Positions 40,156 to 53,114 of a stretch of DNA of 64,000 nt are shown here, one piece after another. The position numbers were made by a program, and so were the translations under genes. The stretch lies in assembly GCA_943788245.1 (NCBI GenBank), contig CALSPN010000012.1:28552-92551 (forward strand), written 5' to 3'. The notes below the pieces were generated by a model. It had not been told where the DNA came from. It searched no databases and worked only from the letters and a program-made list of their open reading frames with translations. Source of the stretch: an uncultured Verrucomicrobiae bacterium. Lineage in GTDB: Bacteria > Verrucomicrobiota > Verrucomicrobiia > Limisphaerales > AAA164-E04. Numbering within the stretch: position 1 is the first letter of the stretch; the number at the start of each line of letters is the position of its first letter.

Positions 40156-43100
40156 ATGATTAAATGTATGAACTATACTGATATGAATAGATCACTTTTA
40201 AAGTGGCTGTTTACGCAGATTTTCTGGGTTTGCCTTTTATCGATTGGAATCCTGAATGCACAGCAATCGCAGTTGGTGCGCCCGCACATCATCGATATTA
40301 AAATTACTCAGGATGAAGTGCTGGTGCGTGCTTTTGTTCCGGAAGGCTACAAACAGGTTTTCGTGGAAGGGAAACCTCGCTTTGAAGTAGGAGCATGGGT
40401 GCCGCGTGCTGTCATTTACACTGAAGGAAAAAAGGGGGAATACGAATTCCGGTTGAGTGTGTCAGAAAAAATTGAATGGCTTCGCATACGCGCAGAAAGT
40501 GAAATACCTTTACCTGTGTCTGCATTTCTTGGGGAATCAGATTTTGCGGGACCCGTGGCCAGTGATGAAAATGTTCTATTTGATGCAATGCCCGTGGCTA
40601 CACCTGATCGAGAGGGCGATTTGACCGAAGGTGCCGGGGGCGAAAAAAGAGAAGTGGTTGAATCCGATATATGGAGACTGGAAGGTGATCGCATGTATTT
40701 CTTCAATCAATATCGAGGTCTGCAGATTGTTGATTTGTCCAACGTGGATCAGCCTCAATTGATGGGAGAAATGGAACTGCCTGCTGCAGGGGAACAGATG
40801 TATCTAGTTGATGCAGGTCATGCCGTTCTTCTTGCACGCAACAGCTGTTCCTATTGGAGTGGTGATGCGGAGAGTCGATTGGTGATTGTGGATGTCTCCG
40901 GAACGGAACCTACAGAAATTGCCAGTGTTCCTGTTGAAGGCCGTATCCAGGATAGTCGTTTGGTTGGGTACTGCTCTGTATGTGACAGCTCAGGTTTATC
41001 GTCATCGAACGGAAAGCGAAGGAGCTGCGGATGAGGAGATCTGGGAGTGGGGGGTCTCAAGTTGTTTCATATGATTTGAGCCATCCCGCATTTCCCGTTG
41101 AGATGGATTCCATCTGGGTGCCGGGTTACCAGAACGTCATCCAGGCAACCTCCGAGTTCCTGTTTGTTTCAACTCAGGGATCTTTCAGGCGAGATCGAGG
41201 ACGATCAACGCTCAAGATAATTGATATCGGTCAGGCAGATGGTGCCATGACAGAATTAAGTGAAATTCGTCCAGCCGGACGCATACTTGATAAATTCAAA
41301 ATCAATATGCATGGTAAAATCCTGCGGGTCATCAGCGAATTACCGATACGCCCACTTCAGACCGATTTGGAAACCTTTGATCTTACCAACCCAAAACGAC
41401 CTTTCAAATTGGGGTCAGTCACTCTTGGGAAAAACGAGAGTCTGCACGCCACTCGGTTCGACGGGGACAAAGCTTACATAGTGACCTTTTTCAGGATTGA
41501 TCCATTGTGGGTGGTTGATTTGTCCGACCCTGCCAACCCGACTATTTCAGGAGAGTTGGAAGTCCCGGGATGGTCCACCTACATTCAGCCCCTGGGGGAC
41601 CAGTTGCTGAGCATCGGGATCGATAATGTCAAAGGTTGGCGCGTGTCGGTTTCTTTGTTCGATGTTGCAGATCCAGCCAAGCCCGGACTGCTGAGCCGGG
41701 TTCCCATTGGTACCCATCACAGTTGGAGTGAAGCCAACCATGATGAAAAAGCCTTCGGTTGGATTGAAGAGGCAGGCCTGATCCTGGTCCCTTTCCAATC
41801 GTATGAAGAAAGTGGCTCGACGGCGGGTGTGCAGTTAATCGATCTCAATGGTGATACGCTTCAGAAACGGGGAGTCATTGAACATACTGTTGCTCCCAGA
41901 CGATCGGCTTTGAAAGAGGACGTGATCCTTTCTTTGTCAGGGCGGAGTTTGATGTCAGTGGATGCGACTGATCGTGATCGACCAGAGCTGGTCTCCGAGT
42001 TGACCTTGTCCTGGCGCGTGGATGAGGTGTTTTCGGTAGGAGATCATGTGCTCCAATTGACCAAAGGTTCGCAATGGAATGGCGAGAATGCCGCCTTGCG
42101 TCTGGGGGAAGCGGACCGGGATTTTCAATTTCTGACTGAGTTGGATCTGGGGTCCATGCCTGTGGTGGGAACTGCCATGCGAGGCGAAACCCTTTTTATT
42201 GCCCAGACATCGACAACGAGTGTTCCTGTACCGGTTGCAGAGGGAGAAAAACCGGGGCCTGAAACGTATTCTTTTGTAATGAGTGCTGTGGACCTCAGTC
42301 GATTGCCTGACTTACAGTTACTCTCTTCTCAGGAAATTCAACTGGAGAACCCTGTTTTCGGTTCGGACCTTCAAGCATTGTGGATAACCGATGATCACCT
42401 GGTATGGCAATCCTCGCAAGATTATTGGTTTTGGGGGAATGATGTTATCTTTGATGGCCCCGCTCGAGGTATTGCGGATATTGGTTTCTGGCCGGGAGGA
42501 TTCTCAGGTTCACGATTTTTAGCCTTTGATACAGATAGTGCGGATGGTCTGCGATTTCTCTCGGATTTTGATCTGGCAGTCGAAAATGTCTGGAACTTTT
42601 CAGATGGCCACGCGGTTGGTGGGAAAATTTATATAAGCTATCAAAAAAGTGAATTAGACGAACCTGGTCCAGACCGTCCCGAAGAGCTTGTGATTAAAGG
42701 GCGATGGATACAGAAAAACTACCTTGCTGTGGTTGATTATGCTGACCCCATTCACCCAACCCAGCGGCCAGCGGTCAATATCCCCGGTTCACTTGCTGGG
42801 GTTTCTCATGGAGGAGATGTTATTTTCACCAAGGGGATGCACTACGATGAGGAAACACTGGTGACCAACAACCGTGAATGGCTTGATGCATTGGCTTATG
42901 ATGGTGTTGCTGCGCATTTAATGGATTCCATTGCCTACTCCAGCCAGTGGCCACATCTGGCTGAAGTTACCCAGCAAGGTTACGTAATCGCTGGTCAGAT
43001 TCAGGAGGATAAGAAAGATGATGATCATTCTCTCGCTGACAACGTATTCGGACTTTACACCCTCAGTAGCTGGTTTCTCAATGATGAAGGCAACTTTGAG

Positions 43101-44132
43101 CGCCAGGATCCTCTCTGGAATTTACCATTTGGTGCTTCAGAACTAAAGTTGATTGACGATCAACTTTTATTGAGGCAGGGGCAAGAAGTCTGGGGTTTCA
43201 ATATTGAGGAGAGTGGAGCATTACAACTTCAATCTATTTATGAACCATTTGGTTGCTACTGGTTCAATCTTTCAGGAACAGTGGTTGATAAAGGAGACCA
43301 CTTGTGGATCCCTGCGTCTGATTATGGCGCTGACAGGCTGAGTCCTGCCAGCCCGGGCCGTCCATTGGTAAGGGTTTCGGGAGGAACTTTTTTTGGCGAA
43401 TGTGAAGGCTATTGTAAGACGTCCATCCATGTCGAACCAACGCGCACGACTTTTACTGCCAGTGCCTTGGATCAGTCTGTGCCCACATACCGACAATACG
43501 CCTATGGTGCAAATAACTGGTCCAGTATAGCTGATACGGTTGACTGGAATGCTTTTTCTGAATTGCCAGAAATTGTCGGATGTCCTGACTGTGCCGATGG
43601 AGGAGGGGAATGGATTGAAGTCAATGTGGCAGGTGAATCACATCGTGTAACTTTTGAAAACGGTGTAAACATAGACGCGATTCAGCCGCTGATTGAACGC
43701 ATTCGGTCCTTGCGTGGTGATTTCAAAATTCCTGAACCAAAAATTGATTCTGTTCATTACATACGGATTGAATCCGATTGTGAAGATCTCTGCCGACGCA
43801 GGATAAACATCAATCAATCAACCTCCCGCTGGACCTTTTCAGACCCTCTGGGCCAGTTGAGAGCAAAAAATTATTCGGAACGCACACCAACTTTGGACTG
43901 GGATCGCCTTGACAGTCTGATTGACTGGCGGGTGGTCCAGGACTTGGCATCCCGGGAATTGGCCATCTGTTACTCCTGTCCAGGTACAGAATGGATCGAG
44001 ATCACGGGGGGGAATCAAATCCATGTGATACCGGCATGGTTTGAAGAAGTCTCCGATTTGAAAGAGTTCCTTCTTTCGACGCTGAATAAATACCAAATTA
44101 AACTTGAGCCTGAAGGGGTTCCCGAAGAGTAA
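40156..44132 (+). pseudogene. Large secreted beta-propeller-domain protein (Beta_propel/PF09826-like) with a tandem C-terminal 4-Cys domain; two frame breaks at 40966-41054
   Basis: Signal MNRSLLKWLFTQIFWVCLLSIGILNA/QQ. REVVESDIWRLEGDRMYFFNQYRGLQIVDLSNVDQP and later SLHATRFDGDKAYIVTFFRIDPLWVVDLSDPANP, WSTYIQPLGDQLLSIG, HHSWSEANHDEKAF are typical of the family. ORF 40075..41034 joins via ORF 40886..41074 to the clean 1033-aa ORF 41031..44132. Confidence 0.7.
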
Positions 44133-44227
44133 ATGAAACGGGTTTGATTTTAAAATACCAAACTAAACACACTGCATCATCTGGCCCCCCTTTTGTATGT
44201 ACTAATCATTCGAGGGAGCGGATCGAT

Positions 44228-44908
44228 GTGTTTCATGCTGCCTTCACGCTGGTGGAATTACTCACCGTTTTGGCCATTGTCGGGATATTGGCGACATTAC
44301 TCATGAGTACGCTTTCAATTGCGAAAAAGAAATCACGAGTAGCAACTTCAACTTCCAACCTGCGTCAAATTGCAATCGCATTTACGCTCTATCAGGATGA
44401 TCATGCCCATCGTCCATTGACTTGGGACAGGTTATTATCATCGGGTTATCTAGGCAGTGAGCGAATCCTTAAGTGCCCTGAAGACAGACAGGGGAATTGG
44501 GGGAATCTGGTCCAACCGGATATGACCGGAAACGTTGCCACCAATCAGCACTCGTATTTGTATCCTTTGCCCTGGGATGACTGGGCTTGGAATCGCATTG
44601 TGAGATCCGGTGCGCATGCGGGGCTCGCCGCATGCCAGCTACATGGTATGGGAAGGCCTGATCCTGATGCACCCTCCATGCTCGATTTTGAAGGACTGGT
44701 GCTGCGTGCTCAATTAGACGGAGCCGTGGTGCGTCGCGAAGTTTACTGGAGGGCAGGGATGGATGTGCCGCTGGAAACAGCAGCTGCCGGTATGCGGGAT
44801 GAAAGTTTAATACCCCCAGATCCGCCCTCCGATGCTGCAAGTCGAATTCTGTTTACGTCGGACTTTCCCTGGTCCTTGTTCATGGATGAATCCCTTGAAC
44901 AACCCTGA
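44228..44908 (+). CDS. Prepilin-type N-terminal cleavage/methylation domain protein (pseudopilin-like)
   Basis: ORF 44144..44908 (TTG). The in-frame GTG at 44228 is preceded by GAGGGAG (44212-44218) and gives a short leader MFHAA/FTLVELLTVLAIVGILATLLMS, the class-III signal pattern. Confidence 0.7.
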   Translation: MFHAAFTLVELLTVLAIVGILATLLMSTLSIAKKKSRVATSTSNLRQIAIAFTLYQDDHAHRPLTWDRLLSSGYLGSERILKCPEDRQGNWGNLVQPDMTGNVATNQHSYLYPLPWDDWAWNRIVRSGAHAGLAACQLHGMGRPDPDAPSMLDFEGLVLRAQLDGAVVRREVYWRAGMDVPLETAAAGMRDESLIPPDPPSDAASRILFTSDFPWSLFMDESLEQP

Positions 44909-44920
44909 ATTTTTCTGCGA

Positions 44921-45727
44921 ATGACATTCAAAACACAAAGGTCATGGATGCGTGGTCTGCTTTGGGCAGAATGGTTTGCTCACAGCCGACTGCTTCTGTC
45001 TTTCCTTCTTCTCTGGCTGGGGGCTGCCTGGATTGTTCCTTTGTTTACTCATCCTGGCTGGATCATGGTGATTTCCTTTCTGTATGCACTTGTGGCGGGC
45101 CCTTCTTATGGTGGATCCGATGCGGTGGACGATTGTGAGGAGTTCACTTTTTCTTTGCCTGCAACGAGATCAGATCGTTTCCTGGCAAGGCTGGCTGTAT
45201 CGGGTTTCACCTTGATGATGTTTGTGGGCCTAGATTTTCTGGTGCTGGGTATGGATTGGCAATCCACTTTGAAACGATTCTTCCTGGACGCTGGCCTCTT
45301 GGAACCTGCTCCGGAATTGAAGCCGGGACTCCTTTACGGTTTGGTGATGGCACTGCCCATCAATGTCTTTTGTATTTCTTTTGTAGTCTCCAGTGTCGTG
45401 CGTCGTCGGTTTATTGTGTTTACCTCATGGTTCTGGAGTCTGGTATTGGCGCTGGGAACCCTCTACCTCGGTGTGATTGCAGAGGAGTGGTGGTGGCATG
45501 AGGTGAATGGATATTTCAGTTTGCCCATGCTGTTGTTTGGTTCAGTCATTATTTTGAAGCTGGGCCATGGGCTCTATCGCCATAAAGAGGTTGGGGACTA
45601 TGGGGCCCCCGTGAATCTTCCATCTGGATTCTTGGGCTGGGTGATCATGTGGCTTGTGGCCTTGATCCTTCTGGTGCTGATGGCGGGTTCGCTGTTGAAA
45701 AAGTTTCCCCAATTTTTCAACACTTAG
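44921..45727 (+). CDS. Polytopic membrane protein, probable ABC-2-type permease partner of the upstream ATPase
   Basis: Intact 268-aa ORF with 6-7 hydrophobic spans. An extracytoplasmic loop ..GGSDAVDDCEEFTFSLPATRSDRFLARL resembles the E..gT.EfL.slP.sR motif of ABC-2 permeases in GntR-ABC operons. The assignment is by context and pattern only. Confidence 0.5.
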   Translation: MTFKTQRSWMRGLLWAEWFAHSRLLLSFLLLWLGAAWIVPLFTHPGWIMVISFLYALVAGPSYGGSDAVDDCEEFTFSLPATRSDRFLARLAVSGFTLMMFVGLDFLVLGMDWQSTLKRFFLDAGLLEPAPELKPGLLYGLVMALPINVFCISFVVSSVVRRRFIVFTSWFWSLVLALGTLYLGVIAEEWWWHEVNGYFSLPMLLFGSVIILKLGHGLYRHKEVGDYGAPVNLPSGFLGWVIMWLVALILLVLMAGSLLKKFPQFFNT

Positions 45728-45737
45728 CTCCATCCAC

Positions 45738-47108
45738 TCAAGATTTAGGATCTGTATTCGTCTCTGATATCGCTCGACGAAGCTTGGGGATATCAGAGTC
45801 AAGAAGGCCCTCCAATTTCCGGATGGATCGGGACATCGAGAAGAAATTGGGGATATCCTTGGGCTTGAGAATCGTGAAAGTCTTCTGAGCTGTTTCCTTA
45901 AGCCCTGACCACATTACATTCAGATCGGTTCGATCTTGAAGCGCCAGTTCGTTACGGAAGGTATCCGCAAACAATTGATCGAGAGTTTCGTAATCTTTGA
46001 GGTTTTCAGAGAATATTTTCAGTAATCGCCTTCCCCAAAACCAGGTGCAAATCGCAATTGTTGTTATCGTGGCTCCCACTCCGGTAGCTATTTCCCATCC
46101 AGGCCAAATCTGAAAGGCGCCCCAGGCCGAGACACCAGCTGATGCAATCAAACCTCCGGAGATAGCCATCCACTTCACTTGAATTTTCCGGTAATCAAGG
46201 CTGATCGTGTTGCAGAGTCGAGCATGCATGGACAGACGTCGTCCGGCATGGATCAAATCGCTGACGACATTGTCGGCTCGCCGGGTTGGGGTACGCCGGA
46301 CTTCTTCAATGACTTCTTTCCTGGATATATCGAAGTCTTTTAAAGGGATCCCAGGCATCCCGTGTTCACTGACGGATTTACGATGCTCAGGAAGGTAAAT
46401 ATTGAAGATATGCGGGATATCCTTTGTGCGTATGGCCTTTGAGAGATTCCAGCTCAGCGTGCCATAGGTGCGAGCAAAATCCCGGATATTCTGAAACAAA
46501 TCCACTTTGTTGAGAATAATCAGTAATTTGTATTCCAGACCAGCCAGCGTCTGCGTCAAAATACTGATAGTCTCTGCAGTGGTGCCCGGCTTGTCCGGAT
46601 CGAAGAAAAAGAGAATCAAATCCGCTTTCTCCGCAAAGAAACGAACGCCGGAGGCAAAGTCATACTCACGGGTATTGGCTGCTCCGATGGCATCAATCAT
46701 TCCCGGACTGTCAACCAGTGCAAATGATTTCAATAGTGGGTTGGGCAAGGTTTTCAGCTTCAATCGCGACAAGAATGCTGGGCCCAGATGATTCAGGTTT
46801 TTCAGAGGTAGGGAAGGGTGGGACGTAATGGTTTGCCCATCAAATGTGTCTCTCTGATCGCCATGACACAATATGGTGAAACCGTCATCCGTAGGAGCCA
46901 GTCCGGTTTTTTGGACGTCGGTTTCGAGCAAGTGATTGATAAAAGACGATTTACCTGAAGAATGATTTCCCAGAAACAAAACGTTCGGTAATCCAGGAGG
47001 TTCCTTTGCCCTGACCGGTAGTTCGAAAGCCAGTTTTTCGGCTAAAGGCCTCAGGTCGCGATCATAAATCTCAATCGCTTTTTTACTGATTACTCTCTCC
47101 ACACTCAT
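45738..47108 (-). CDS. Dynamin-superfamily NTPase, EHD-like G domain, with C-terminal transmembrane hairpin
   Basis: Intact 456-aa ORF. G1 GNHSSGKSSFINHLL, PTDDGFT, G3 LVDSPGM, REYDF....FAEKADLILFFFDPDKP, G4 LNKVD, then YGTLSWNLSKA and PTRRADNVVSDLIHAGRRLSMHARL. These are colinear with eukaryotic EHD ATPase motifs. Two hydrophobic helices follow (WMAISGGLIASAGVSAWGAF, IATGVGATITTIAICTWFWG). Confidence 0.7.
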   Translation of the reverse strand: MSVERVISKKAIEIYDRDLRPLAEKLAFELPVRAKEPPGLPNVLFLGNHSSGKSSFINHLLETDVQKTGLAPTDDGFTILCHGDQRDTFDGQTITSHPSLPLKNLNHLGPAFLSRLKLKTLPNPLLKSFALVDSPGMIDAIGAANTREYDFASGVRFFAEKADLILFFFDPDKPGTTAETISILTQTLAGLEYKLLIILNKVDLFQNIRDFARTYGTLSWNLSKAIRTKDIPHIFNIYLPEHRKSVSEHGMPGIPLKDFDISRKEVIEEVRRTPTRRADNVVSDLIHAGRRLSMHARLCNTISLDYRKIQVKWMAISGGLIASAGVSAWGAFQIWPGWEIATGVGATITTIAICTWFWGRRLLKIFSENLKDYETLDQLFADTFRNELALQDRTDLNVMWSGLKETAQKTFTILKPKDIPNFFSMSRSIRKLEGLLDSDIPKLRRAISETNTDPKS

Positions 47109-47144
47109 TGAGTCCCTTAAAAAGTATTGTCTGCAGGCTGAGTT

Positions 47145-48083
47145 TTATTTCAAGCGTACGGTGGCCTCCACAGGATAATGATCCGACGGGAATCTTCCAG
47201 TCTCCTGAGTGTAATTGATCGCTGCATTGAGTGTTACAAAGTCATTGGAGTGAAGTATCCAGTCAATGCGCTTTCCTTTGCGATGACCGTTCCATCTTGA
47301 GAAGGAAGCTTCCTGATCATTCGGCGTTGGGTGGATGGCCCGATAGGTATCGACCAGTGGTTCGCCGTTGAAACCTTCGGCTTTGCAGAGGGCGGCGTAA
47401 GGAGCACCTTCTTCGGTAGTATTGAAGTCACCTGTCAGGATGACTGGATACTCATTCATGATCTCCTCAGCTCGGCGGCGGATCAATTTGGCTGACTCCA
47501 GACGTGCCTCTTTCCCTCTGTGATCGAAATGTGTATTGGCAAACACGAATTCTTTTCCTGAGGGAGATTTCAAATCGCGTAACATGACCCAGGACAACAT
47601 GCGGGTCAAAGAGGAATCCCAACTAATACTTCCAGGGATTTCAGGCGTTTCACTCAACCAGAAGTGACCGGAGTCCAACATTTCGAAACGATCTGTTTTC
47701 CACATCAAGGGTACATACTCTCCCTTTTCAGTTCCGGCATCGCGTCCAATGCCATGAAAACCATAGCCATCAAGGTTAGCTTTTAAAATATCTACCTGAA
47801 ATTTCAGGGCTTCCTGATAGCCAATCAAGTCAGGGTTGTAGTTTTTGATCGTTTCGAGAACGAGGTAGTCCCTGTGTTTCCAACTGTTTTCTCCATCATT
47901 GGCGGCTCCGTAACGGATATTAAAACTCATCACTTTGACTGGCGCATGCCGATCGGCCGCTTCGACCTTGGATTGAACGCTGAATGTGCCTGCTACCATG
48001 ATTGCGGCCAGGCTGAAAATCTTGATCAGTGGATTTATGGTTGGTGTTCGCATAACGCAAAAGACTTTTGAGTAAATTCTCAA
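47145..48083 (-). CDS. Endonuclease/exonuclease/phosphatase (EEP) family protein, secreted
   Basis: Intact 312-aa ORF with signal ...AAIMVAGTFSVQSKVEA/AD. Motifs: VMSFNIRYG, GYQEA, THFDHRG, GDFN, SDHYPV. Its stop codon lies 36 nt upstream of the GTPase gene's start codon, on the same strand. Confidence 0.8.
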   Translation of the reverse strand: MRIYSKVFCVMRTPTINPLIKIFSLAAIMVAGTFSVQSKVEAADRHAPVKVMSFNIRYGAANDGENSWKHRDYLVLETIKNYNPDLIGYQEALKFQVDILKANLDGYGFHGIGRDAGTEKGEYVPLMWKTDRFEMLDSGHFWLSETPEIPGSISWDSSLTRMLSWVMLRDLKSPSGKEFVFANTHFDHRGKEARLESAKLIRRRAEEIMNEYPVILTGDFNTTEEGAPYAALCKAEGFNGEPLVDTYRAIHPTPNDQEASFSRWNGHRKGKRIDWILHSNDFVTLNAAINYTQETGRFPSDHYPVEATVRLK

Positions 48084-48120: not shown

Positions 48121-48154
48121 ATAAAAAGCCACCCAATCCCGGAGGATTGGGTGG
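48121..48154 (-). terminator. Intrinsic terminator after amtB
   Basis: Perfect 11-bp stem CCACCCAATCC (48129-48139) / GGATTGGGTGG (48144-48154) with a 4-nt loop, followed on the minus strand by CTTTTTAT. It lies 40 nt downstream of the amtB stop. Confidence 0.85.
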
Positions 48155-48192: not shown

Positions 48193-49599
48193 TCAATAAT
48201 CTACAGCAGGCTGAAAGTTTGGATAACCGGATATACCGTGCTCTCCGACGTCCAGACCCTCTTCCTCTTCCTGTTCAGTTACTCGCAACCCTAATACCAT
48301 TTTCAATATACCAAAAACAATGAAGGTGAATACAAAGGCAAAAGCGGATATGGCCACTGTGCCGATCAACTGGATGACGAAATTTGCGCCTCCGAAAATG
48401 CCGACAGCGAGCGTTCCCCAGATGCCACACACACCGTGTACGGATATCGCTCCCACTGGGTCGTCAATCTTGATTTTGTCAAAGAAAACGACAGATAGAA
48501 CAACAAGAACGCCTGCAATGGCTCCAGTGATTACAGCTGCCCAGGGTGGAATCACATCTGCTCCAGCAGTGATACCGACCAATCCTGCAAGCAGACCATT
48601 CAAAGCCATGGAAAGGTCAGGTTTTTTGAGGAATACCCAGGAGAACAGTGCTGCAGCCAAACCGCCTGCACAACCAGCCATTGCAGTGGTTACAAACACA
48701 AGTGAAACACCCGCAGGATCTGCACTCAAAACAGATCCGCCGTTAAATCCAAACCATCCGAGAAAGAGCATGAATACCCCTATGGTAGCTAGCGGCATAC
48801 TGTGGCCGAGAATAGGCTTGATCTGTCCATTGACATATTTACCGCGTCGAGCACCCAGCAACAACACAGCTGCCAGGGCAGCAAATCCGCCGAAAGCATG
48901 TACTAATGTTGAACCGGCAAAATCAGCGAATCCCATTTCCGACAACCATCCGCCGCCCCAGTGCCATGATCCGGTTATAGGATACCCAATCATGACTAAA
49001 ACAGTTGCTCCAATCATGAAACTTCCCAACTTGATACGCTCAGCAACAGCACCGGATACGATTGTAGCAGCCGTTGCTGCAAACATGGCCTGGAAAATAA
49101 AATCAGACCAGTAAGTGTAATCAGCATATTGATTTGTCAAGTTGGCGACCGAGTCTGCTCCCTCGGCAAATCCGTTGGGTATCGGACTACCCATTGCAAG
49201 GAATCCTGTTATGGTCCACGCATCCCCTGGATACATGGATATGAACCCCCACATAGCGTAAGAGAGGACGCCCATCGAAATGATGAAAACATTTTTGAAC
49301 AAAATATTCACTGTGTTCTTCTGGCGTGTGAGCCCACTCTCCAGAGTGGCGAAGCCTAAATGCATGATAAATACCAGAGCTGCGGATAAAAGGATCCACA
49401 GATTATCCACCATGAACTTGGGATATGCTACTGGCATCGACTGGAATTCTTCAACGGTTGTAAAAGCCGGGGCTTCTTCTGCTGTTTCCTCGACTGCGGT
49501 TTCGGCAACAGCGATGGCTTCCTCTGCGCCATTCATTTCCAGGGTAACAAAACTCATGAATGTGAGTAGTAGTGTAAGGAGTGTGATTTTTTTGGTCAT
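48193..49599 (-). CDS. amtB: Ammonium transporter
   Basis: Intact 468-aa ORF with an N-terminal signal and 11 TM-like spans. Amt signatures: FATLESGL.RQKN, AFADFAGSTLVHAFGGFAALA, GWFGFNGGS, DDPVGAISVHGVCGIWGTLAVG. It is immediately downstream of glnK. Confidence 0.9.
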   Translation of the reverse strand: MTKKITLLTLLLTFMSFVTLEMNGAEEAIAVAETAVEETAEEAPAFTTVEEFQSMPVAYPKFMVDNLWILLSAALVFIMHLGFATLESGLTRQKNTVNILFKNVFIISMGVLSYAMWGFISMYPGDAWTITGFLAMGSPIPNGFAEGADSVANLTNQYADYTYWSDFIFQAMFAATAATIVSGAVAERIKLGSFMIGATVLVMIGYPITGSWHWGGGWLSEMGFADFAGSTLVHAFGGFAALAAVLLLGARRGKYVNGQIKPILGHSMPLATIGVFMLFLGWFGFNGGSVLSADPAGVSLVFVTTAMAGCAGGLAAALFSWVFLKKPDLSMALNGLLAGLVGITAGADVIPPWAAVITGAIAGVLVVLSVVFFDKIKIDDPVGAISVHGVCGIWGTLAVGIFGGANFVIQLIGTVAISAFAFVFTFIVFGILKMVLGLRVTEQEEEEGLDVGEHGISGYPNFQPAVDY

Positions 49600-49656
49600 A
49601 ATAAAATTATCAGGGTTTCAAGTAGCTGAGTTTCTGAATGTTTTCTGATGAAGGGA

Positions 49657-50118
<462 letters not shown>

Positions 50119-50288: not shown

Positions 50289-51566
50289 ATGTCCTTAAGG
50301 TTCGCGCCATTCCATATGAAGAATTTTTGTGCTCATAGATTGCTCCATTGGTGGTTTCGGACGGGTGTTGCAATGTTTGTAATGTGTGGACATTTTTCTC
50401 CCTCAAATGCACAAGTGTCTCCACGGCAGATTGAGATCGGGGTGATTCCGGGTGGGCTGAGATACAATGTGACGGAATTTGAAGCTGCCGTTGGAGAATT
50501 CATTGAGCTCACATTGGACAACAATGGTTTAATCCCTCACAACTGGTTGCTTGTTCAACCAGGGAAACTGCAAGATGTGATCAATGCTGCCGTCGCTTTG
50601 GGAGGCATCGGATTGAGTAAAGATTTTATCCCTCAAACACCAGACATCCTGCAACGCATAGCATTGGTTCAACCCGGCAAAAGCATTTCGATTCAATTCA
50701 AAGTTCCCGAAAAAACTGGAGATTACCCATATGTTTGCACCTTTCCTGGGCACTCGAATCTCATGCGAGGTGTGATGAAAGTGGTGGGTAAGTCTGAGAA
50801 GGTATCCGCTCCCTTGACTGAAACAAGTTCAAGACGACTTGCCTTGGACGCGTTAGCCAGATCAAAAGTTCAGCCATTCCCAGAGGGAACACGGGAAAAA
50901 CCCTACATCATCCGCACCTTCATGCCTGAACCTGGCCTTAACCCTGAAGTGCTCGCCAATCATGACCGCGGATATGTCGCTGCCAATTACAATCCCGGCC
51001 AGGGCAAAGACGTTCCTGGAATTGTCCTGACAGACCAGGGATTGCCTGCCGCCATCGGGGTTCACTTTGGTGAGCCTTTATCCATATGCTGGGACACGGT
51101 TGAATGTCGATTGATGTATGCATGGAATGGAGGTTTTCTGGATATGAGCCATTATTGGGGAAAGGGAGCCGGTGGAAGTCGGAAAGGATTTGATTACGTT
51201 TCTCGTTTGATCGGGAAAATTCAATTCAAGACTCAAGGAACACATCCCCTGAATGCCAATTATCGTGGGGATACAATCCCTCCTGTACCTCGGTATCGAG
51301 GGTATAAGCTGTTCAATGGGACACCAGAATTCATCTATACATTCGGACATTACACCGTATATGAACGTGTCACTCCATCCGGGAATAAGGCGGTGCAATT
51401 CGATTACTCCATTAGGGACATGCAGAACGACTCGCTGATAAGATTCGGCTTGGATCCAGCGATACGTCCAAGCGTGGAATCATCCATCGGACATTGGGAG
51501 GGCAACGAATTACTCCTCACCGCAGAGGAAGCCAGAAAATTTCAATTGGTCCTGCGTTACGATTGA
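50289..51566 (+). CDS. Azurin-like cupredoxin domain protein with a C-terminal domain of unknown function
   Basis: Intact 425-aa ORF with a signal-like N-terminus. Type-1 copper ligand pattern ...IPHNW...GDYPYVCTFPGHSNLMRGVMKV (H, C, H, M as in azurin CTFPGHxxxM). The roughly 250-aa C-terminal part has no motif I recognise. The start is possibly ATG 50316. Confidence 0.7.
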   Translation: MSLRFAPFHMKNFCAHRLLHWWFRTGVAMFVMCGHFSPSNAQVSPRQIEIGVIPGGLRYNVTEFEAAVGEFIELTLDNNGLIPHNWLLVQPGKLQDVINAAVALGGIGLSKDFIPQTPDILQRIALVQPGKSISIQFKVPEKTGDYPYVCTFPGHSNLMRGVMKVVGKSEKVSAPLTETSSRRLALDALARSKVQPFPEGTREKPYIIRTFMPEPGLNPEVLANHDRGYVAANYNPGQGKDVPGIVLTDQGLPAAIGVHFGEPLSICWDTVECRLMYAWNGGFLDMSHYWGKGAGGSRKGFDYVSRLIGKIQFKTQGTHPLNANYRGDTIPPVPRYRGYKLFNGTPEFIYTFGHYTVYERVTPSGNKAVQFDYSIRDMQNDSLIRFGLDPAIRPSVESSIGHWEGNELLLTAEEARKFQLVLRYD

Positions 51567-51599
51567 ACATGAGTTGCAAAATCTTGGGAAAAAGGCTTC

Positions 51600-53114
51600 A
51601 TGAAAATTCAAAAAGTTCTCAACATTTTTAGTCAGGCTTTAGCAGGTTTCGCCCTTGTGCTGCCTTATGTTGGTCAATCCGTTGAAATGCCACCCGAGTA
51701 TTATGAGGTGCAGGAAATCCCTTTGCCTGTCGGAGTGGCTCCTGAGATTGGCGGATTGAAATTCAACAGCAAAGGCGAACTCATCGTATTGACACGACGG
51801 TCAGGGATCCTGATTGCCAAACCTCATCAGGATCCCAATCAATTTCAATGGCGGACATTTACAGATCATAGTTTGCATAACCCCATGGGGATTCTCGTGG
51901 AATCGGATCATCAATTTCTGATTCCCCAGATGGCGGAGTTGACACGGATTGTCGACACTGATCGGGACGGCACAGCGGACTTGTTTGAAGCGGTCAGTAC
52001 GGAGTGGGGGGTCAGCGGGAACTATCACGAGACCAATGCCGGACCGATTCCTGATGGCGAAGGTAATTGGTTCGTTGCTATTGGGACAGCGTCTCACAAT
52101 GGCCCCACCTTTGATTACGTGCGAGGCGAATTCTCCAGAACGGGGCGTCGAGGGCGAAATTATTCCGCAGTAAAAGATAAAGGTTGGGTGGTGAAAGTGA
52201 CTTCTGATGGCAGCATCATTCCCTGGGCGAGTGGTTTTCGAGCGAACAATGGAATCGGGATGAGTCCTTCAGGGGATCTTTGGGTCACCGATAATCAAGG
52301 GGATTGGCGTGGGACATCTCCCATCTATCATGTTGAAAAAGGTCGTTTTTACGGACATCCATCCAGCTTGGTTTGGGATGCATCTTTTTTCCCAAAGAAT
52401 GGGGATCCATTGGAATTTGGGGTGGATCGATTAAATCAGTTAAGAACACCTGCGGCCATTCAACTACCCCATGGATTGGTATGTAACTCTCCTTCCGAAC
52501 CGGTGTTTGACGCAACCAACGGTAAGTTTGGTCCCTTCAAAGGCCAAATGATGGTGGGAGACATTGCTGGTCAACGTATCATTCGTGTCATGCCAGAGAA
52601 GGTAAGAGGCGTTTATCAAGGTGCATGTGCTTTTCTGATCGAAAATTCTGGATTACGTGGTGGTAATAACCGGTTGACCTTCAGTCCCGAGGGAAATGCT
52701 CTTTATGTGGGGCAAACCTACCGTGGATGGGGGGCTCCTGCTGAAGGGTTACAGCGCATTGTCTGGACCGGTGTCACACCTCTTGAGGTTCGACAAATGA
52801 GTTTAACGCCAGGTGGGTTTGATCTTACATTTACTAAACCAATCGATGCGAATGCAGCCAATGATCCCGATCGATATCAGATCCAAAGTTATCGCTACAG
52901 CTACGGACACAAATACGGAAGTCCTCAATTAGACAGGAAAGTTCATTTTTCAAAACGAGTGAATGTCTCTGAAGACAAGTTTACGGTTTCTTTGAAACTG
53001 GATCAGGTTGAAGCAGGAAAGGTATATCAAATAGATCTGGTCAACTTGTTTTCATCCGATGGATTACCCATCATCAATCCCATGGTTTGTTACACTGTGA
53101 ATCAATTGCGCTGA
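51600..53114 (+). CDS. Secreted beta-propeller protein (glucose/sorbosone-dehydrogenase-like / PVC membrane-bound dehydrogenase N-terminal type)
   Basis: Intact 504-aa ORF with signal ...LAGFALVLPYVGQSVE. Motifs: NPMGILVESD, TDRDGTADLFE, FRANNGIGMSPSGDLWVTDNQGDW, FYGHPSS, NRLTFSPEGNALYVGQTYRGWG. It lies 33 nt after the cupredoxin gene. Confidence 0.65.
   Translation: MKIQKVLNIFSQALAGFALVLPYVGQSVEMPPEYYEVQEIPLPVGVAPEIGGLKFNSKGELIVLTRRSGILIAKPHQDPNQFQWRTFTDHSLHNPMGILVESDHQFLIPQMAELTRIVDTDRDGTADLFEAVSTEWGVSGNYHETNAGPIPDGEGNWFVAIGTASHNGPTFDYVRGEFSRTGRRGRNYSAVKDKGWVVKVTSDGSIIPWASGFRANNGIGMSPSGDLWVTDNQGDWRGTSPIYHVEKGRFYGHPSSLVWDASFFPKNGDPLEFGVDRLNQLRTPAAIQLPHGLVCNSPSEPVFDATNGKFGPFKGQMMVGDIAGQRIIRVMPEKVRGVYQGACAFLIENSGLRGGNNRLTFSPEGNALYVGQTYRGWGAPAEGLQRIVWTGVTPLEVRQMSLTPGGFDLTFTKPIDANAANDPDRYQIQSYRYSYGHKYGSPQLDRKVHFSKRVNVSEDKFTVSLKLDQVEAGKVYQIDLVNLFSSDGLPIINPMVCYTVNQLR

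Follow-up and report, generated by a model that had tools for sequence, protein, structure and literature searches.

Does a bacterium of the Verrucomicrobiota encode an ATPase of the kind represented by the eukaryotic EHD (Eps15-homology-domain) proteins, and what would such a protein do there? The question is raised by a stretch of 64,000 nucleotides from an uncultured Verrucomicrobiae bacterium (contig CALSPN010000012.1, positions 28,552 to 92,551 of the forward strand), here called the window, in which a reading made from the letters only (the sequence-only reading) had singled out a 456-residue NTPase of the dynamin superfamily. It was taken for an EHD-type, membrane-remodelling ATPase, of interest for the eukaryote-like membrane biology of the Planctomycetes-Verrucomicrobia-Chlamydiae (PVC) group and apparently co-transcribed with a secreted nuclease or phosphatase of the EEP family. 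The analysis described below upholds the resemblance to EHD proteins, although by sequence the closest characterised family is MfnL, EHD being only the closest one with a solved structure. The protein is probably a bacterial MfnL / EHD-sarcalumenin-like dynamin, i.e. a hairpin-anchored, cytoplasm-facing NTPase that would use nucleotide to shape the inner membrane. The gene in question is the following.

45738..47108 (including the stop codon), minus strand: gene of an MfnL/EHD-like dynamin-superfamily NTPase of 456 amino acids, recognised by its open reading frame (ORF), a Dynamin_N match and matches to EHD2 and PgMfnL

The similarity to EHD proteins can be followed at the level of both sequence and predicted fold. 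When all PDB sequences were searched with phmmer, mouse EHD2 was the top match (E 6e-39, 137 bits, query residues 5-301 against EHD2 19-313, with 29% identity over these ~295 residues) and EHD4 the second (E 1e-35), while beyond these two the best PDB sequence reached only E 0.03 and the Campylobacter bacterial dynamin-like protein (BDLP) 5owv E 0.1. The alignment to EHD2 is ungapped to lightly gapped, it contains all seven motif correspondences that had been listed from the letters, and the proposed colinearity extends beyond G1-G4, with both the N-terminal helix and the first stalk helix included. A comparison of predicted structures, which the sequence-only reading had suggested as a check, points the same way. 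Specifically, an AlphaFold2 (AF2) monomer model built from a 33-sequence alignment (predicted local distance difference test score, pLDDT, 81; predicted template-modelling score 0.72) found its best Foldseek matches in EHD4 and EHD2 (7sox, 4cid, 2qpt; E 3e-18 to 2e-14, template-modelling (TM) scores 0.57-0.64), with EHD4/EHD2 ranked first at E 3e-18 and TM 0.64 and membrane-bound EHD4 structures among these matches, whereas IniA, BDLP and the mitofusins gave E values of 2e-10 or above and TM scores of 0.34-0.38.

It might be argued that the protein is a generic GTPase of the Era, EngB, Der or YdjA type, or a classical BDLP, which has been misread as EHD-like through shared G motifs. Some database entries do call homologues ‘GTPase Der’, ‘EngB’ or ‘SAR1 family’, and Pfam reports MMR_HSR1 (3e-7) in addition to Dynamin_N (2.3e-11, residues 43-201). 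However, the NCBIfam models of Era, Der and MnmE give 16-25 bits against cut-offs of 237-307 (25.1 against 237 for Era and 22.8 against 306.7 for Der), which refutes a translation GTPase of the Era/Der kind, BDLP stays at E 0.1 by sequence and at a TM score of ~0.35, and the EHD alignment extends well past the G motifs. By phmmer, NCBIfam and Foldseek alike, the protein is closer to EHDs than to YdjA/EngB-type GTPases or classical BDLPs, as had been claimed, and the generic explanation is hardly credible.

The nearest relatives in the sequence databases are nevertheless of another kind than EHD2. Morel et al. (bioRxiv 10.1101/2023.06.28.546890) have built a family, MfnL, around the Trypanosoma brucei protein TbMfnL (Tb927.7.2410), whose members combine a G domain with two consecutive C-proximal transmembrane helices, and have reported bacterial homologues, including the Pedosphaera sp. 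protein MCH2381658.1. An exhaustive phmmer search with the window protein over 1.84 billion cluster representatives returned 1881 matches at E<=1e-3, and 254 (as 50%-identity clusters) at E<=1e-30. Longer eukaryotic proteins are among the matches, and a second search with one of these, from a dinoflagellate, led to CAE8737761.1 (P0379), which is the Polarella PgMfnL of Morel et al. Identity between the window protein and PgMfnL amounts to 37% over residues 38-445 (E 4e-75), and with the MfnL orthologue of the trypanosomatid Strigomonas culicis it is 34% over residues 2-449 (E 5e-84); both alignments run through the hydrophobic hairpin and the C-terminal tail. The EHD-like identity proposed earlier can thus be retained as a real resemblance but not as the closest assignment (37% and 34% for the two MfnL proteins against 29% for EHD2). 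The two families do not exclude each other: the trypanosomatid MfnL, as a query against the PDB, matches EHD2 and EHD4 only (E 2e-26), which argues that MfnL and EHD are related clades. In neighbour-joining trees (281 columns), the eukaryotic MfnL proteins form a clade with 89% bootstrap that is placed among bacterial groups, and EHD2 sits on a long branch without a settled attachment point.

The sequence-only reading was unsure how widely such homologues had been described. They are already described, both in the preprint of Morel et al. and by Schaffer, Iyer, Burroughs and Aravind in 2020 (PMC7016017), who proposed bacterial origins for EHD and sarcalumenin and described bacterial relatives with two transmembrane helices. 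Therefore, the window protein is no new kind of protein but a member of a family known in silico. Indeed, its exact 456-residue sequence is already present in public databases, where the rest of its 90% cluster is named ‘dynamin family protein’, ‘GTPase’ or ‘hypothetical protein’, and a relative, ~98% identical, comes from a marine metagenome-assembled genome (MAG) labelled ‘Pedosphaera sp. MED719’. The present analysis joins two papers that cite different relationships: the term ‘EHD’ occurs nowhere in the text of the MfnL preprint (bioRxiv 10.1101/2023.06.28.546890). In a 2026 review of EHD proteins, ‘prokaryot’ occurs nowhere in the text and ‘bacteria’ is used once, about Listeria uptake.

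Names in the databases may also reflect the connection. Three MfnL members from Symbiodinium (P0245, P0246 and P0404) are called ‘EHD2’ or ‘EH domain-containing protein 4’ in NCBI/UniProt; P0245 and P0246 have no EH domain among their precomputed Pfam domains, and in P0404, a model of 1140 residues, an ion-transport domain is joined on, which is probably an artefact of gene prediction. Such names look like automatic transfers that reflect the similarity between MfnL and EHD.

How the protein may work can be approached through its parts, which are arranged as follows (AF2 helices refer to the model mentioned above).

47034..47102, minus strand: N-terminal helix, residues 3-25 (AF2 helix), aligned with EHD2 19-45 and part of a composite helical domain as in EHDs

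46359..46988, minus strand: extended G domain, residues ~41-250 (Dynamin_N match and column conservation)

Motifs of the G domain: G1 GNHSSGKS (residues 47-54), switch I APTDDGFT (71-78), G3 DSPG (133-136) and G4 NKVD (200-203), followed by Leu204

46170..46340, minus strand: post-G stalk helices, residues 257-313 (AF2 helices 257-271 and 273-334), in which the segment PTRRADN...HA aligns with EHD helix alpha8

46035..46169, minus strand: hydrophobic helical hairpin, residues 314-358 (hydropathy), with the Trp-rich turn QIWPGWE and pLDDT 85-93

45741..46034, minus strand: C-terminal helical tail, residues 359-456 (AF2 helices 338-369, 373-389, 394-413 and 422-452)

Conservation was evaluated over 76 full-length family members. 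The P-loop GNHSSGKS, the DxPG motif, the Lys and Asp of NKxD and Trp220 are invariant, and the Asn of NKxD is kept in 72 of the 76; in the tail, positions R393-x-D395-L396...W400 and R444/R445 are conserved. Trp220 (Trp in 76/76) aligns with W238 of EHD2, which we take to be the centre of the EHD-specific dimer interface. S50 is conserved as well, and in dynamins the corresponding P-loop Ser is a ligand of the catalytic cation (PMC5084822).

The two adjacent hydrophobic helices and the helical tail noticed in the sequence-only reading are borne out by hydropathy and by the AF2 model. The helices cover residues 314-332 and 340-358, have Kyte-Doolittle means of ~1.3-1.5 and are joined by the QIWPGWE turn. 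Such a pair is found at the same position in all 76 members, where its sequence is not conserved, its mean hydropathies are 1.96 and 2.22, and its loop ranges from 0 to 29 residues. Lys plus Arg make up 0.32 of the ten residues preceding the hairpin and 0.29 of the ten that follow it, against 0.09 of the loop, and 15% of the loop residues across the family are Trp. Lys/Arg-rich flanks around a Lys/Arg-poor, Trp-rich loop are what a hairpin with both ends in the cytoplasm would be expected to show. In the AF2 model, the stalk passes without a break into the first hydrophobic segment by way of helix 273-334 and is rejoined by helix 338-369, so that the hairpin occupies the position of the EHD alpha8-alpha9 tip. 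This tip has been seen to enter the outer leaflet by cryo-electron tomography (PMC9741607).

It is at the nucleotide-binding site, and in what the protein lacks, that the analogy with EHD ATPases becomes doubtful. A Pfam search at E<=10 found no EH or EF-hand domain, in agreement with the sequence-only reading, and no EHD-specific model, the matches being limited to generic GTPase/P-loop families and a weak, unrelated tRNA-synt_His; the motif [GN]PF, present as GPF/NPF in the EHD linker, is absent from the sequence. The residue after the G4 NKxD is Leu204, and Leu at this place is also found in dynamin (TKLDL) and Ras (NKCDL). Across the family the residue is Leu in 30 members, Gln in 28, Arg in 15, Thr in one and Val in one, and Met in none of the 76. 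In EHDs, by contrast, the guanine amino group is kept out by a Met placed immediately behind NKxD, and the EH-domain tail occupies the G4 Asp (PMC5084822). With neither this Met nor an EH domain, GTP is the more likely nucleotide for the window protein, as judged from its sequence, and the designation ‘EHD-type ATPase’ is not borne out. As a separate observation, the split between Leu, Gln and Arg after NKxD may mark sub-clades with different nucleotide handling.

A true EHD-type ATPase, which would bind ATP and not GTP, function in the manner of EHD1-4 and have a hairpin in place of the EH-domain and lipid-binding functions, would account for EHD2 and EHD4 being the best solved matches by sequence and fold, for the invariant dimer-interface Trp and for the colinear KPF-loop region. 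It would not account for Leu, and never Met, after NKxD, nor for the missing EH domain and NPF/GPF motif, and the protein lies nearer to MfnL than to EHD; it is therefore held to be unlikely.

The bacterial MfnL reading starts from what was observed here: homology by sequence and predicted fold, the taxonomic spread, the distribution of charge around the hairpin, and the fact that G1-G4, the dimer-interface Trp and the hairpin are conserved. How the bacterial protein is oriented, which nucleotide it prefers, and that it oligomerises and remodels membranes, is what we infer. The G domain would sit on a helical stalk built from the N-terminal helix and the post-G helices, and the two central stalk helices would extend into the ~45-residue hydrophobic hairpin, at the position of the EHD alpha8-alpha9 tip. 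The hairpin would serve as a permanent anchor in the cytoplasmic membrane, so that both the G domain and the C-terminal tail would be cytoplasmic. On binding nucleotide, which is likelier to be GTP than ATP, anchored dimers would make contact through their G domains. The oligomer so formed would bend or branch the inner membrane, or stabilise it where it is curved, and would be set free upon hydrolysis.

This membrane-shaping role is suggested by two groups of homologues. Over-expression of TbMfnL causes mitochondrial hyper-branching that requires the G1 lysine K141, the activity is lost when the transmembrane pair is deleted, and the protein is carbonate-resistant and protease-protected in mitoplasts, which places it in the inner membrane, facing the matrix (bioRxiv 10.1101/2023.06.28.546890). 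EHDs, for their part, oligomerise into filaments and insert a helical tip into the membrane (PMC9741607).

Several points weigh against this interpretation. First, every functional step proposed for the bacterial protein is an extrapolation from homologues, and knock-out or knock-down of TbMfnL is reported to have left mitochondrial shape unchanged (bioRxiv 10.1101/2023.06.28.546890). Second, the hairpin of the window clade is weakly hydrophobic (1.3-1.5) and could be a monotopic or re-entrant wedge instead of a bilayer-spanning pair. Third, the predicted structure is that of a monomer, from a 33-sequence alignment. Finally, the expected preference for GTP hangs on a single sequence position, and the K141A result for TbMfnL does not tell GTP from ATP.

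The next question is whether the family has anything to do with the PVC group in particular. With one genome scanned for each GTDB species, a relative turned up in at least 587 species genomes, and the best 80 loci among these were used for comparisons of taxa and neighbouring genes. They include Verrucomicrobiota, Planctomycetota (Kuenenia among them), Chromatiaceae, Rhodobacteraceae and a Myxococcales MAG; Halochromatium roseum DSM 18859 and also Rhabdochromatium marinum DSM 5261 are among the carriers in culture, and a single locus among the relatives is labelled Methylomirabilota. Proteobacterial sequences come out of the tree as a clade with good support, the Verrucomicrobiota group only weakly (45% bootstrap) and the Planctomycetota are not a single clade. 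Members of all phyla score alike against EHD2 (108-164 bits), so that the PVC copies are not closer to eukaryotes than the others, the planctomycete and gammaproteobacterial members being even slightly above the window clade. The PVC angle of the sequence-only reading fails, since Proteobacteria and Myxococcota also carry the family, and a special affinity between PVC bacteria and eukaryotes was rejected on the even EHD2 scores, the attachment of the EHD2 branch being unsettled in the trees.

Some gene models among these loci call for caution. Naive upstream extension of the ORFs gives products of 843-1295 residues at several planctomycete loci, L039, L040, L041, L044 and L047 among them; over-extension of ORFs in high-GC sequence is the most likely cause, with N-terminal fusions as the alternative.

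The same 80 loci bear on the possibility that the protein is a membrane-damage surveillance or anti-phage dynamin, like DynA or LeoABC, and not a housekeeping shaper of membranes. Bacterial dynamins have been connected with how cells respond when antibiotics and phage puncture the membrane (bioRxiv 10.1101/2023.06.28.546890), and PADLOC gives a weak LeoBC match (7.6e-6). This match is, however, confined to the generic G domain, and neither a defence-island context nor partner genes were seen at the loci. The gene is single, with no tandem pair and no second dynamin gene at any of the 80 loci, and the tree, with its proteobacterial cluster and otherwise weakly supported phylum groupings, resembles vertical inheritance more than spread by mobile islands. 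A defence role is quite improbable, and it was rejected as the principal interpretation because the LeoBC match to the G domain was all that PADLOC offered.

What remains is the gene directly upstream. The two ORFs lie on the same strand, 36 nt apart, precisely where the sequence-only reading had put them, and the features between and around them are these.

47145..48083, minus strand: gene of an EEP-fold phosphoesterase of 312 amino acids, predicted to be secreted or periplasmic, upstream of the NTPase gene (Exo_endo_phos match, signal-like N-terminus)

47109..47144, minus strand: intergenic spacer of 36 nt, with an AAGGGA Shine-Dalgarno-like element 6 nt ahead of the ATG

48129..48154, minus strand: intrinsic-terminator-like hairpin 3' of amtB (11-bp stem, then CTTTTTATT)

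The predicted T-tailed terminator hairpin in the interval between amtB and the EEP gene would be the upstream edge of a putative EEP-NTPase transcription unit, and terminator prediction found none in the spacer between the pair. With no terminator between the two genes and a strong one upstream of them, transcription of both on one messenger is plausible from the sequence. As to the product, the EEP protein matches Exo_endo_phos in Pfam (1e-13) and begins with a hydrophobic, signal-like segment (residues 16-38, then VEA/AD). Its closest solved relatives are the Bacteroides proteins 3g6s (5e-46), 3mpr and the mannosyl-6-phosphatase BT3783 (4c1r, 6e-38), and nocturnin and ExoIII-type enzymes match far more weakly; a secreted sugar or glycan phosphatase is for these reasons more likely than a nuclease. 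Of the earlier description as a signal-peptide-bearing EEP nuclease/phosphatase, the family and the signal-like N-terminus hold, and the phosphatase is to be preferred to the nuclease.

It is tempting to see in the pair a two-gene module, in which the NTPase and the secreted phosphoesterase co-operate, for instance in envelope or vesicle biogenesis or in enzyme export. The arrangement just described fits, and at six loci, L001-L006, whose NTPases are 68-98% identical to that of the window, an EEP gene immediately precedes the NTPase gene at a spacing of 35-52 nt. L005 and L006 keep the pair while the other flanking genes of the window were not detected there, and because of this persistence a clade-specific EEP-NTPase operon is possible. 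Linkage conserved at the level of the family, which the sequence-only reading had made a condition of its finding, must nevertheless be rejected. A combination of tblastn and a purpose-built EEP hidden Markov model found no EEP gene within 4.5 kb at ~73 other loci of the best 80, so that the linkage is confined to the six closest loci. No other family-wide neighbour emerged either: 1906 flanking ORFs, clustered all against all, fell into no group represented at more than 13 of the 80 loci, and the largest groups are clade-specific. In addition, the two products are predicted to lie on opposite sides of the membrane, and the Bacteroides glycan/sugar phosphatases that the EEP protein resembles (BT3783) have no known link to dynamins. 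A co-operating module is thus improbable and a functional link weakly supported; most likely, the EEP gene is an unrelated neighbour that by chance shares a transcript with the NTPase gene in the window clade.

The wider surroundings can be summarised briefly. Directly upstream on the same strand (48193-50073, minus) lie a P-II (glnK) gene and then an amtB ammonium-transporter gene. The P-II ORF is listed with 138 residues, and since its Pfam match starts only at residue 27 the true start is probably an internal Met; AmtB carries a signal-like N-terminal extension of ~65 residues ahead of its Pfam domain. Downstream, at 44144-45727 (plus), a 254-residue protein with a prepilin-type N-methylation motif (N_methyl 3.5e-4) is followed by a 268-residue multi-pass hydrophobic protein without a Pfam match, whose gene converges on the NTPase gene and ends 10 nt from its stop codon. 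Both genes are also conserved at this downstream position in L001-L003 and L007, and neither was detected in L004-L006. At 41031-44132 (plus) a protein of 1033 residues is encoded, of which the N-terminal 312 correspond to the C-terminal part of Pfam Beta_propel (PF09826, 5.5e-50) and the remaining ~700 have no Pfam match at all. At 50289-53114 (plus), two adjacent ORFs of 425 and 504 residues have signal-like N-termini and no Pfam match at E<=1e-3. Rfam and tRNA scans across the whole window returned no matches.

Taken together, three tempting readings have been corrected, i.e. those of (i) a PVC-specific family, (ii) an EHD-like ATPase and (iii) a functional tie to the EEP gene. The value of the result lies less in the novelty of the window protein than in a large bacterial family that is open to experiment: EHDs, sarcalumenin and MfnL remodel endosomal, endoplasmic reticulum and mitochondrial membranes, and their bacterial relatives are an obvious place to learn what the ancestral machine does. 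A more far-reaching view can be put forward tentatively, and it is doubtful as a whole. The two-transmembrane GTPases of Schaffer et al. and the bacterial MfnL proteins of Morel et al. could be one family, the prokaryotic stock of EHD, sarcalumenin and MfnL. Its integral hairpin would be ancestral to the EHD alpha8-alpha9 tip, and its members might use GTP to shape membranes, invaginated or internal, of PVC, purple and anammox bacteria. In the marine Pedosphaera-like clade, the gene would also have become coupled to a secreted phosphoesterase.

With regard to known systems, the most distant comparison is that with the classical BDLP (2j69), IniA (6j72), Campylobacter DLP1/2 (5owv), DynA, LeoA, Mfn1/2 and Fzo1, which belong to the same superfamily and carry a hydrophobic membrane-binding element at their helical domain's tip. 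They exceed the window protein in size, are built with neck-and-trunk or HR1/HR2 bundles and are frequently found as tandem pairs or fusions, whereas the window gene is single and its product compact (~450 residues). EHD1-4 (2qpt, 4cid, 5mtv, 7sox) are the closest relatives with a solved structure: the G domain, the N-terminal helix, the first stalk helix and the KPF-loop region are colinear, and the same helical hairpin bears the membrane-contacting element at its tip. They differ in having an EH domain, an NPF/GPF motif and the Met after G4, none of which is present in the window protein, and in their C-terminal tails; moreover, the EHD tip is peripheral and polybasic/hydrophobic, where the window protein is predicted to have an integral hydrophobic hairpin. 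The bacterial two-transmembrane relatives of PMC7016017 were compared by description, which the window protein fits exactly, both in its transmembrane pair C-terminal to the G domain and as the closest relative in bacteria of EHD and sarcalumenin, although a proteobacterial donor is proposed there for the eukaryotic proteins and the copy studied here is verrucomicrobial. The closest correspondence is with MfnL, which shows the same order of dynamin-type G domain, helical region, two C-proximal hydrophobic helices and helical tail. The window protein differs in a hairpin less hydrophobic than that of most family members and, like all prokaryotic members, has no mitochondrial targeting sequence (bioRxiv 10.1101/2023.06.28.546890). 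TbMfnL faces the matrix, and the cytoplasm-facing topology predicted for the window protein is its equivalent.

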